Positions 33,001 to 36,000 of a stretch of DNA of 64,000 nt are shown here, piece after piece. Source of the DNA: an uncultured bacterium. GTDB lineage: Bacteria; Babelota; Babeliae; Babelales; Babelaceae. The DNA is taken from contig CAWFXL010000001.1 in assembly GCA_963819815.1 (NCBI GenBank), forward strand, positions 896,001-960,000. Reading direction: 5' to 3'. Every line of letters begins with the position of its first letter. Within the stretch, counting starts at the first letter, position 1. Position numbers: made by a program.

Positions 33001-36000
33001 AACGGCCAAAAAGAATAAGAGCATCACGGCTCAATTCAGCCTTTTCACCCTTCTGAGCACAGGAGCCGGCAGGAAAAGCCTGGGGTTGTAACTCAACGCC
33101 CGTCAGCAGGTACTGCTTCAAACTTTCAATAAGAAAAACTTTTTTTCCCGTATCGATAAGCCCAAAGTACTTACATACAGTACGTAGCTGACCCATCGTC
33201 AAGACATAGAACGACTCAAAGAGTGCATCACGCTCCTGTGAAGAAAGATGCTTAATCTGAGGATGTATCATATCTTTCTCTCTATGAAAGAAGCGAACCG
33301 ATCATCTCAGTTCGCTTCTGTATACATCTGCTGCTAACTCTTACTGGGCCGTATAAGGCAAAAGTGCCATAATACGAGAATTCTTTATCTCGCTAGCTAA
33401 CTGACGCTGATGACCAGCACAGTTTCCGGAAATGCGAGATGCGAGTATCTTACCACGTTCTGTAATAAAGCTTCGTAATAAGTAGGAGTTTTTGTAATCA
33501 AGTGATGACGCATTGGCATCATTGGCGCAAAAACGACAGTGTTTTTTGCCTTGGAACCCACTACGACGACGTTTTTTCTTCTGTAGCGTTTTGCTACTAA
33601 TTCTCATTTTCATACAAACCCCGCTTAATCTAAATTATCATCTTGAAACATATCAGCACCACCACGATCACGTCGAAGAATATTTTTAGATTCTTTCATA
33701 ATCGTATCGATATCTTTAGAAGGAGCTTCCTCTAAAGATTCAGGACGCTTGTATTCGAGTGAATGCTTAGCAGGTAGACTCTTGAGCACGCTCCTCATTA
33801 TGAGTTCGCCGTATTTAACACCATACAGCTTTTTAAGCTCTGCCAATACTTCATCTTTACGATCATCCCCTACCTCAAATCGCATGAGATAGTAGACACC
33901 ATAGTCGTTGCGACGAATTGGATAAGCGAGCTGGTATTTACCCCAGCGCTCAAACGAGATAATTGACCCTTTGGATTCGGTTACCGCCTTTGACAGTGTC
34001 TTTTCAAGACTACCCGCCTCATCGGTGGTAATCTCAGGGACGGTAATAAAGAGAGATTCATATCGAAGCATTTAAGCCCTTTCTACTAACTGGAAGTTCT
34101 GCCTTGCGGCACACTAGAGGGCAACGTACATCGTTGCCCTCTTTAGTAGTGTTGTATTCATGTAATAAGTATAGAGATACTTACTGATTAATCAAGTCTT
34201 TGGTGACGACCAACGACGCGTCCAATGATTCTGAAATGATCTTTACCACGGACTAATGCAATCGGACGAGTTTTATGGTTAACTGCTTCGAGAACCACAA
34301 AATCTTCCGTATAGGTAACTTGCATGATCGCCTTAATAGGTGTCTCATTACCATACTCTACCGCTGCAATATCGCCTGAGCGAGTCCACACATCGGGAGA
34401 GATAATGAGCAAATCGCTCTTTTCAAACGTAGGAGCCAATTGGTTACTACCTAATGAAAGAGCGAACATAGATCCATCACTTGAATTTAAAGTAGGTACA
34501 AAGACATCTTTAAACCCAGTTGTAAGCTGCATAAGCTGATTATTATAGGGCGAAGGATTTGAAGGAATATCTCCAACAACCGGCACTATATGTACTTTCA
34601 ATTGTATATCTGATTTCTCAGGCATACTTACATTATTATCGATATCATCAGTACGTTTTCGGCGCTGTGCAAAAAGATCCAATGGGCTAATCTCAAAAGC
34701 ATTAGCCAATTTTCTGAGCGAATCTTCGTTCCAACGACGCGTACCATTCTTGATATGCGTTAGATAGCTTTCAGACATCCCGGTTTTTTCTGCTAAAACC
34801 TTGGTTGTCCAGCCCTTTTCGCGAAGCAACTCTTTTACACGGAGTGCTGTTGAAGACATAATAACTCCTTCCCTTACATGGAATATGGTTGTTTTGGTGT
34901 TAACACTGCTTACTTAACAGTGTAACTTACGATTTATACCTGTCAAATGGAAACTAACTTCTTTTCAAAAATAGTATTCCACACTACCCTTTCTACAAAC
35001 TGCCTCAAGGTTCCCATCATAATAATGACGTGAACTCTGCTATTAGCAGCATCTACAAGAACATCTGTACGAGTCAAAGGGTCTTAGAGCCTATCGATTC
35101 TAGGTAACCCATGTATCATTTCATCACAAAGATTAAGGGTTCTTTGACATTTATAAACAATTCTACCAGTAAAAAAATCATTTGACAATAAGAAAAGATA
35201 GTTCTGCAGAAACTCTCTTCAATACCTTGAAATAGGCGCATTCTCAACGATAAAAGGCCACCCCTATAGGGATGGCACCAGCAATGCTGTTTGCACCAAA
35301 CACCTTGCCGATGCTTAAAAAACTGGTAGTCTTATAGCATACTTTACTGAAAGGATTTTTGGTGAATGCCTCACAATTAAAAGATCTCCATTCTACTGGT
35401 CCCTCAACTCCCTTTGCAGAAATTATCGAAAGCTCACTACACACCTGGCGAGCTCAATGCTGGGACGGGGAAATAATCCCTGCTCACGGGTCTATTCTTA
35501 CGGCCACCTCAGGCTCACGAACAATCTTTGGCATTGTACATGCAAGCAGTATAGGCTCACTCGATCAACAGAGAACCGTCTACGCTTATAAAAAAAGTGA
35601 AGCGCAGCTCAAGCAGGACCATCCTCATATATTTGAGTTTCTCACCTCCACCTTTGAATGTCTTACCCTTGGTTATGTAGAAGGCACGTCGATGCGCTAC
35701 CAACTAGCTCCTACGCCACCGAAAATTCATGCATTTGTCAGCGCCCCTGACCAACAGAGTCTTAAGCTCTTTTTTGCACAGGATCACTATTTACACACCC
35801 TTTTTTCCCATGAAAACCAGATCTTTGCCTTAGATGACCTTATATTAGCACTCATCGAACAGCTTGCGCACTCAAATACTCTTACTCCAGATCGCTTGAG
35901 AAGGTTTATGCAAACCTTTTCTCTCTTAACTGCCAATGATTACCGACGGCTTAAACTCTTTTTACAAAGGGCCCAACCGCTTTTAGCAGCTCAGGAGTAA

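Follow-up and report, generated by a model that had tools for sequence, protein, structure and literature searches.

What is a protein built like a phage CI repressor or LexA doing in the chromosomal core of the Babelota, a phylum in which LexA itself appears to be missing? We examined this for one such gene in a 64,000-nucleotide stretch of the genome of an uncultured member of the Babelaceae (hereafter the window; positions count from its first letter). A survey of the whole genome had singled the gene out as a near-invariant, protease-dead candidate master regulator. The features discussed here are located in Table 1.

Table 1. Positions in the window of the regulator gene, its protein features, its promoter and related sites.
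Feature	Position	Strand	Remark
CI-type regulator gene (XRE HTH, linker, S24-fold domain), 223 aa	34188..34859	(-)	
XRE/Cro-CI DNA-binding domain, residues 4-63	34671..34850	(-)	49/60 columns at least 95% conserved
Recognition helix and the loop after it, residues 29-46	34722..34775	(-)	near-invariant, second copies included
S24-fold C-terminal domain with cleavage-site region, residues 89-220	34200..34595	(-)	
Conserved predicted helix, residues 104-113, right behind the apparently dead cleavage site	34521..34550	(-)	in both AlphaFold models
Ser100-Asn101 at the scissile Ala-Gly position	34557..34562	(-)	Gly in 0/240
Gln140 at the catalytic Ser position	34440..34442	(-)	Ser in 20/240
Lys176 to Met179, catalytic Lys region	34323..34334	(-)	Met179 preferred; Lys176 alternative register
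Shine-Dalgarno-like purine run	34866..34875	(-)	
Inverted repeat ACACTG-N9-CAGTGT	34903..34923	(-)	covers the -10 box and the probable start site
Sigma70-type promoter TTGACA-N16-TACACT	34919..34946	(-)	
Exact 12-mer TTCCATTTGACA	34941-34952	(-)	over the TTGACA-N16-TACACT promoter
Candidate operator O1, TTTCCA-T-TTGACA, 13-bp imperfect dyad	34941..34953	(-)	right half is the -35 box
Second exact TTCCATTTGACA of the window's genome, the only one besides that of the regulator	23663..23674	(-)	-35 box of a GNAT gene
rpsF, usual downstream neighbour of the regulator	33625..34071	(-)	
Promoter-like TTGATT-N16-TATACT of rpsF itself	34168-34195		

The protein scores above the Pfam cut-offs for HTH_3 (39.8 bits) and Peptidase_S24 (38.6 bits), as the survey had found, and its match to the LexA equivalog TIGR00498, likewise as described there, is sub-threshold (21.9 bits against a cut-off of 110.95) and confined to residues 125-217 in the C-terminal part. 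Two AlphaFold models were made, one with outgroups and the other from family members only; in both, a five-helix XRE domain is followed by an S24 fold, with a linker of low confidence between them. When the first model was used, its C-terminal domain, cleavage-site region included, matched that of lambda CI (8gmu_A; Z 13.2, rmsd 2.7, 116 residues aligned) and LexA (3k2z_B; Z 12.5, rmsd 2.5, 115 aligned), and the modelled regulator also matched the C-terminal domain of phage 186 CI (Z 10.9, rmsd 2.7, 102 aligned). The predicted fold is of the lambda CI/LexA type, and with an XRE helix-turn-helix and an S24-fold C-terminal domain the protein belongs structurally to the CI-like S24 repressors. 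Controller proteins of restriction-modification systems are among its nearest HTH structures, its ESM Atlas matches were Peptidase_S24 clusters only, and Rfam gave no match at 33200-36000. The helix predicted at residues 104-113 is a candidate surface for the binding of a partner.

The near-universality and usually single copy noted in the survey extend to a wider sample. The gene was found in 200 of 201 Babelota genomes, including all 176 of high quality, with one match in 161 genomes, two in 37 and three in one, and frameshifted pieces in another (G182). A full-length second copy was confirmed for six genomes and stands in tandem in G028, G043 and G166. Conservation is extreme. By reciprocal-best comparison the regulator ranks fifth in identity among 357 orthologues (G008) and eighth among 367 (G018), beside DnaK, EF-G and S12, and some of the rows above it look like spurious frames. 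The invariance of the recognition region also stood: of 240 distinct sequences, a set biased to close relatives that was used for all residue counts here, 222 agree throughout residues 29-45, and all 18 columns from 29 to 46 are conserved at 95% or more. The position beside rpsF was confirmed at 90 of 109 regulator loci. Compared with the window, these have a median identity of 81% for the regulator, 49% for S6 and 57% for S18, a gap inflated because these loci were mostly chosen as best regulator matches.

The neighbours of the gene are rpsF, rpsR, a conserved ORF of 213 residues and ftsY. This ribosomal-gene neighbourhood, the lack of any phage immunity region and a distribution over 200 of 201 genomes that is anything but patchy led us, like the survey, to reject a prophage repressor, and support the regulator as a core chromosomal gene. 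It is the sole HTH_3 match in three of the five genomes tested and the only XRE-type HTH protein common to all five, each of which has a single sigma70-type factor. Those close relatives that have names come from Dependentiae/Babelota and carry the labels XRE regulator, LexA or S24 peptidase, and the best full-length relatives outside the Babelota family are only about 28-32% identical. In a tree of 51 chosen rows, 13 of them outgroup proteins, the 38 family rows (second copies included) form one clade on a long stem (100/100).

Has the protein kept the capacity to cleave itself? Profiles, one of them built from 27 outgroup proteins alone, align Ser100-Asn101 with the scissile site and Gln140 with the catalytic Ser, so the window protein has neither the Ala/Cys-Gly nor the catalytic Ser of a self-cleaving S24 peptidase. 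Residue 101 is Gly in none of the 240 sequences, and column 140 is variable (Q85, L72, S20, A20 and others), several of the Ser140 members being deep-branching. The survey had placed the cleavage site in a V-G-D region and the catalytic Ser on an invariant Asn139; the alignment bears out neither. Asn139, which is Asn in 234 of 240, is the residue before the catalytic Ser position, and the wrong register probably arose from a one-residue insertion after Ser-Met in LexA.

The catalytic Lys is placed with less certainty, because a three-residue insertion fits either before or after it. The survey had left Ala177 or Met179, next to a conserved Lys176. Our analysis prefers Met179, the choice of MAFFT, hhalign and 200 of 240 HMM alignments, with position 176 (Lys in 211, Arg in 27 of 240) as the alternative from BLAST and 40 of the 240. 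In both AlphaFold models residues 170-174 form a five-residue loop and 184-186 a short turn, and strand boundaries in the two models, with the extra residues in the loop and the turn kept short, favour Met179. Spacing to the flanking motifs is a perfect fit for neither register, being 14 from Gly162 to Lys176 (13-15 in outgroups) and 14 from Lys176 to Leu190 (11-13 in outgroups). On these alignments and models Met179 is most likely the position of the catalytic Lys, and Lys176 may pair with the invariant Glu168 instead.

Judged from the sequences, self-cleavage is very unlikely, since the scissile Gly is missing throughout, the Ser is missing from 220 of 240 members and the Lys has probably become Met. 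The protease-dead character proposed by the survey holds on these losses; its argument from the invariant Asn does not. That the regulator might still cleave itself, with Lys176 as base and some other nucleophile or site, draws on the alternative register, on the imperfect spacing and on the 15 members in which Ser140 and Lys176 occur together. None of the 15 has Gly101, however, Arg takes the place of residue 176 in 27 members, the window protein is itself among the 220 without Ser140, and the loop residues in both models point to Met179; we give this reading hardly any weight. Loss of the signature is not unique to the family, as a few of the nearest outgroup proteins (P0170, P0190 and P0217) also lack parts of it.

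The survey had noted a conserved sequence over the -35 box of the regulator's promoter, and it remains a good operator candidate. The common form of orthologous promoters is TTTCCAT-TTGACA-N16-TAC[AT]AT-TAGAAATAA, and the 16-bp spacer occurs in 106 of the 113 that have a -35/-10 match. From its sequence the motif reads as a 13-bp dyad, TTTC[TAC]A-N-T[TA]GA[AC]A, with the half-site TTTC[TAC]A. Deep-branching promoters carry TTTCTATTTGAAA or TTTCAATATGAAA, in which the dyad symmetry is kept and the -35 box sacrificed. O1 (TTTCNAN-TTGACA) is exact in 88 of 129 orthologous upstream regions and has at most one mismatch in 104. A second copy of the dyad, O2 (GTAC[AT]A-T-TAG[AT]AA), lies over the -10 box at a distance of 28 bp in 70 of the 129, and one or other of the two is present in 106. 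O2 is eroded in the window's genus, where the inverted repeat of Table 1 stands in its place in the window; this repeat is unique within the intergenic DNA of that genome. Near the start site, GCAGT occurs in 67 of 129 own promoters and in none of 233 other promoters. Within 220 nt upstream no dyad was found for most second copies or for the examined members of families f9 and f11, and the recognition helix of these proteins is unchanged.

The exact 12-mer is less constant than the 25 of 30 given in the survey, being present in 77 of 129 distinct upstream regions; together with a -10 box it gives 118 matches in 109 of 201 genomes. Nearly all of these are at the regulator's own promoter, about one per genome, and the 12-mer was rejected as a regulon motif. 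The survey had found no regulon for the motif. The dyad is enriched at other promoters all the same: TTTCNAN abutting TTGACA-N15-18-TANNNT gave 89 matches in 61 Babelota genomes, of which 34 were self by coordinates and 55 non-self, against 8.4 non-self sites expected among 3811 promoter-like matches from the background frequencies of four Babelota genomes. These 55 are spread over 27 genomes from five families; about nine are near-duplicates or common to kin, some 46 remain when near-duplicates are collapsed by eye, with kin not independent, and TTTCTATTTGACA alone makes up 20. A permuted control, TCTTNAN, gave 8 matches where 10.0 were expected. The control TTTTNAN gave 39 rows (5 self; 23.9 expected) and TTTC with a non-A gave 33 (2 self; roughly 17 expected). 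Enrichment is found only at offset 0 from the -35 box, and a 16-bp promoter spacer is commoner among the non-self sites (37/55) than overall (133/301; p 6e-4).

The dyad is also specific in its own spacing. In intergenic DNA of four genomes, spacer 1 yields 14 distinct dyad sites; nine other spacers yield one to six each, and 12 Markov simulations gave 2.3. For the symmetric form 10 intergenic sites were counted there, compared with one to three for three permutations; without TTGACA, the count between genes is 10 against 3.0. In coding DNA the symmetric form is scarce (7 against 16.7) and spacer 2 is equally low. One-mismatch variants showed no enrichment (7 against 5.3), and the loose dyad, with 503 sites over whole genomes against 620 for the reversed control, was rejected as a genome-wide motif. 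As the motif was derived from the regulator's own promoter, another factor could own it.

Which genes would such sites control? Exact dyad sites elsewhere number about one per genome, and target genes were identified for those in the four genomes examined, where five exact non-self promoter sites precede a WD40-like gene, an ankyrin-like gene, two orphan ORFs and HU. The WD40-like protein looks secreted and both orphan ORFs have hydrophobic N-termini. By a crude rule that pooled all site types, signal peptides were called in 11 of 18 site-bearing genes compared with 841 of 2178 (39%) overall, which is not significant (p 0.09). Among the 150 matches listed of 262, no ankyrin gene adjoins a non-self site in G005, G020 or G041. 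In G005 and G020 similar sites occur in close pairs, a hint of tandem paralogues. HU was rejected as a conserved target, with two of the 55 non-self sites in a single genus. In the window's genome, the second TTCCATTTGACA has one mismatch to the dyad, and its GNAT gene (23063-23605) lies outside the orthologue groups with conserved sites.

Footprinting covered G000, G008, G018 and the first 500 kb of G079, with 449 orthologue groups, 233 of them having usable upstream DNA. The first run was swamped by tRNAs. Whether by weight matrix or de novo, the only motif to recur at several genes was TTGACA, and no target besides the gene itself was conserved across families, within the limited power of four genomes. 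HrcA was rejected as the owner of conserved upstream motifs (0/5 genomes). The survey's finding that the motif lacks a regulon survives in this sense, that no target crosses families, and fails for the enrichment of 55 sites against about 8. Exact extra sites come to roughly one per genome and have no common target, and 'master regulator' is an unproven title. The sites point to a regulon that would be small and lineage-variable.

We consider it somewhat probable that the regulator is a CI-type repressor that has been domesticated, can no longer be cleaved, controls its own promoter and has a small regulon that varies between lineages. A phage-CI-type repressor would have been captured before the Babelota radiation and have become a core, sequence-specific transcription factor without cleavage. 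Its dimer would bind the 13-bp dyad and, from O1 at the -35 box and O2 at the -10 box, block sigma70, giving negative autoregulation. A few lineage-specific promoters in each genome would be repressed in the same way, several of them preceding secreted WD40, ankyrin or orphan proteins. In lambda CI the C-terminal domain makes dimer and higher-order contacts, and the S24-fold domain would have been kept for contacts of this kind, not for proteolysis. Release would not come through RecA-driven cleavage; the regulator may be switched by a ligand or another protein that binds its conserved C-terminal surface, or by being diluted as the infection cycle proceeds. The dead S24 domain probably binds a partner, to judge from antirepressor-controlled phage repressors as presented in part of PMC3121763. 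Binding, its sign, the dimer and the inducer are all steps that we infer. A bolder version is a tentative possibility: that this dead-protease phage repressor is a life-cycle switch, sits over the -35 boxes of genes for secreted proteins that manipulate the host, comes off when a partner or ligand binds the repurposed S24 domain, and represents an independently evolved counterpart of the chlamydial EUO in a phylum that apparently has a single sigma factor.

Sites that overlap a promoter can also be read in another way. Lambda CI at PRM and the controller proteins of restriction-modification systems activate from beside the -35 box, and the regulator might do the same, or the TTTCNAN flank might be read by the Babelota RNA polymerase itself. 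It would fit that the signal is strongest directly beside a perfect TTGACA (offset 0), that the 16-bp spacer is over-represented at non-self sites and that the closest HTH structures include controller proteins. We nevertheless think this unlikely, as the symmetric form is enriched intergenically even without TTGACA, deep lineages lose the -35 consensus and keep the symmetry, and a dimer centred on the dyad would be expected to cover the entire -35 hexamer. Slightly less probable again is that the dyad is incidental, or belongs to another factor, and that the invariance reflects some other essential job such as one chromosomal site or a protein partner. About one exact non-self site per genome, without shared targets, is indeed thin for conservation at the level of DnaK and EF-G, and the f9 and f11 copies examined have no upstream dyad. 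Against this, the dyad is kept at the regulator's promoter in most families, no other XRE-type HTH protein is shared by the five genomes tested, and co-opted S24 regulators normally autoregulate, according to parts of PMC13148647 and PMC8565304.

A last reading returns to LexA. The survey's statement that the phylum is without it was upheld: LexA_DNA_bind (PF01726) is over cut-off in two of 201 genomes, both times at the end of a contig shorter than 2 kb and in a frame without an S24 domain, and no full-length LexA was found among the 201. The regulator has HTH_3 in place of PF01726, and together with the sub-threshold TIGR00498 score and the missing operator pattern at recA, uvrB and umuD this led us to reject a canonical LexA. 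It could still be the phylum's SOS regulator if it sensed the RecA filament by binding, without cleavage. RecA is present in 61 of 61 genomes, umuDC is intact in G000, the cleavage-site region is retained and ordered in the models, G000 has a dyad 76 nt upstream of uvrB, and Bacteroidetes run SOS with CI-like proteins (a section of PMC8565304). The O1-type dyad is, however, absent upstream of recA in 30 of 30 genomes, of uvrB in 30 of 30 other genomes and of umuD in G000, and the promoter-like site of recA lies inside the upstream gene. An SOS regulon built on the G000 uvrB site was rejected as the site is not conserved, and we regard an SOS role, which the survey had also discounted, as improbable.

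The preferred reading, a domesticated repressor, has some precedents in the literature searched. Co-opted CI-like regulators in Bacteroidetes and Francisella and a cleavage-dead LexA in Synechocystis are already known (parts of PMC8565304, PMC13148647 and PMC1524924). Our searches found no paper on this regulator, which supplements, lying outside the search, might list; no described Babelota regulator-operator pair; and no cleavage-dead CI fixed across a phylum. In the main text of PMC4776705 the words 'regulator', 'LexA' and 'XRE' do not occur, and in the isolate paper the passage on regulators names merR, yebC and fmdB only (PMC6561590), part of which also describes a Babelota cycle with replication-body and coccus stages. 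New here are the promoter motif as a 13-bp dyad, its second copy over the -10 box and its enrichment at other promoters. With the protein named, its 13-bp site predicted and promoters listed, there is a first handle on gene control in these protist parasites, and stage regulation in Babelota becomes testable in vitro without genetics. These results also extend the theme of the co-opted phage repressor to a case in which the cleavage switch has been dropped and the protein is among the most conserved of its phylum. The database labels 'LexA' and 'S24 peptidase' are misleading for this family.

Among known systems, EUO of chlamydiae is a functional analogy only, shared through an intracellular bacterium with a developmental cycle. 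It is a phylum-wide, vertically inherited repressor with about 15 known late-gene targets in the portion of PMC4652624 that treats it; the Babelota regulator is compared with it on grounds other than homology, and the analysis gave it neither a link to a stage nor a conserved target. Closer in origin are the non-canonical LexA of Bacteroidetes, streptococcal HdiR and Francisella FddR, presented in parts of PMC8565304 and PMC13148647 as co-opted CI-like S24 regulators. Like the Babelota protein they are chromosomal, stand in lineages without a canonical LexA and have a palindrome in their own promoter. Unlike it, the Bacteroidetes proteins have intact Ala-Gly and Ser-Lys and control SOS genes (PMC8565304), HdiR cleaves itself and FddR responds to DNA damage (PMC8565304; PMC13148647); the Babelota regulator has lost the signature, and recA and uvrB lack its site. 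The LexA of Synechocystis sp. PCC 6803 is likewise a cleavage-dead S24 repressor, without Ala-Gly or the catalytic Ser and with a role outside the DNA-damage response in the parts of PMC1524924 concerned, yet it is an annotated LexA of one organism, whereas the Babelota protein is XRE/CI-type and phylum-wide.

Phage 186 CI (PDB 2fkd, 2fjr) and the Gifsy repressors are released by antirepressor binding and not by cleavage, as part of PMC3121763 describes for repressors of this kind. They are phage-borne and have known antirepressors where the Babelota partner is hypothetical; what the systems would share is release without cleavage, along with the structural match to the 186 CI C-terminal domain given above. 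The lambda CI-type phage repressors (PHROG 4; PDB 3bdn, 8gmu) differ from the Babelota regulator in that the latter is a chromosomal core gene beside rpsF, lacks the scissile Gly and mostly the catalytic Ser, has the extra predicted helix at 104-113 and is distant in sequence from its nearest full-length outside relatives. Both nevertheless have a five-helix XRE domain joined to an S24 fold with a cleavage-site region, and the Babelota regulator would, like them, have tandem operators over its own promoter.

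The conserved 213-aa ORF that neighbours the regulator was found at 86 of 109 regulator loci, almost always in divergent orientation, and it resembles a HAS-barrel protein, which makes it a possible member of that family. The GC-rich hairpin listed with it gave no Rfam match in a search of window region 33200-36000; it is a possible candidate for a leader of rpsF-rpsR.

Neighbours of the regulator in the window
Feature	Window position	Strand	Remarks
213-aa ORF, conserved	35359-36000	+	no Pfam match
Hairpin, GC-rich, without U-tract, after promoter-like site	34110-34140	-	between regulator and rpsF

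In one genome, G182, the regulator is split into frameshifted pieces (G182:C6:192787-193455; loci L035 and L040-L042) with its promoter motif still intact, and these frameshifts are probably an assembly error. A perfect inverted repeat with the dyad (the candidate 13-bp operator over the -35 box of the regulator's own promoter) inside it occurs in genome G079 (L347:16650-16685), with a gene whose product looks secreted on one side and a hibernation-factor-like gene on the other. Among the 33 control matches, promoter-like sites in a 61-genome search with TTTC and a non-A in the flank before the -35 box, the variant TTTCAGATTGACA occurs six times, at promoters in G003, G004, G001, G035 and G044; the dyad site may tolerate this form.

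S24 matches outside the regulator family were confined, among five genomes, to G000, where an intact umuDC pair (G000:C1:636782-638451, minus strand) is present in the absence of LexA. Across 30 genomes (L180-L209), recA mostly lies directly 3' of a coding gene, whose last codons contain a conserved -35/-10-like pair. Outside the window, a 153-aa ORF (G000:C1:1516741-1517202, plus strand) has 76-78% cross-family identity and ranks among the ten most conserved orthologues by reciprocal-best identity.

Upstream of dnaK, a TGAGT..N7..ACT[AC]A-like element lies 5' of the -35 box in all four genomes compared (G000, G008, G018 and G079). HrcA was found in none of the five genomes searched, and a MerR-like gene is present and conserved. 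The dnaK element resembles the HspR/HAIR system.
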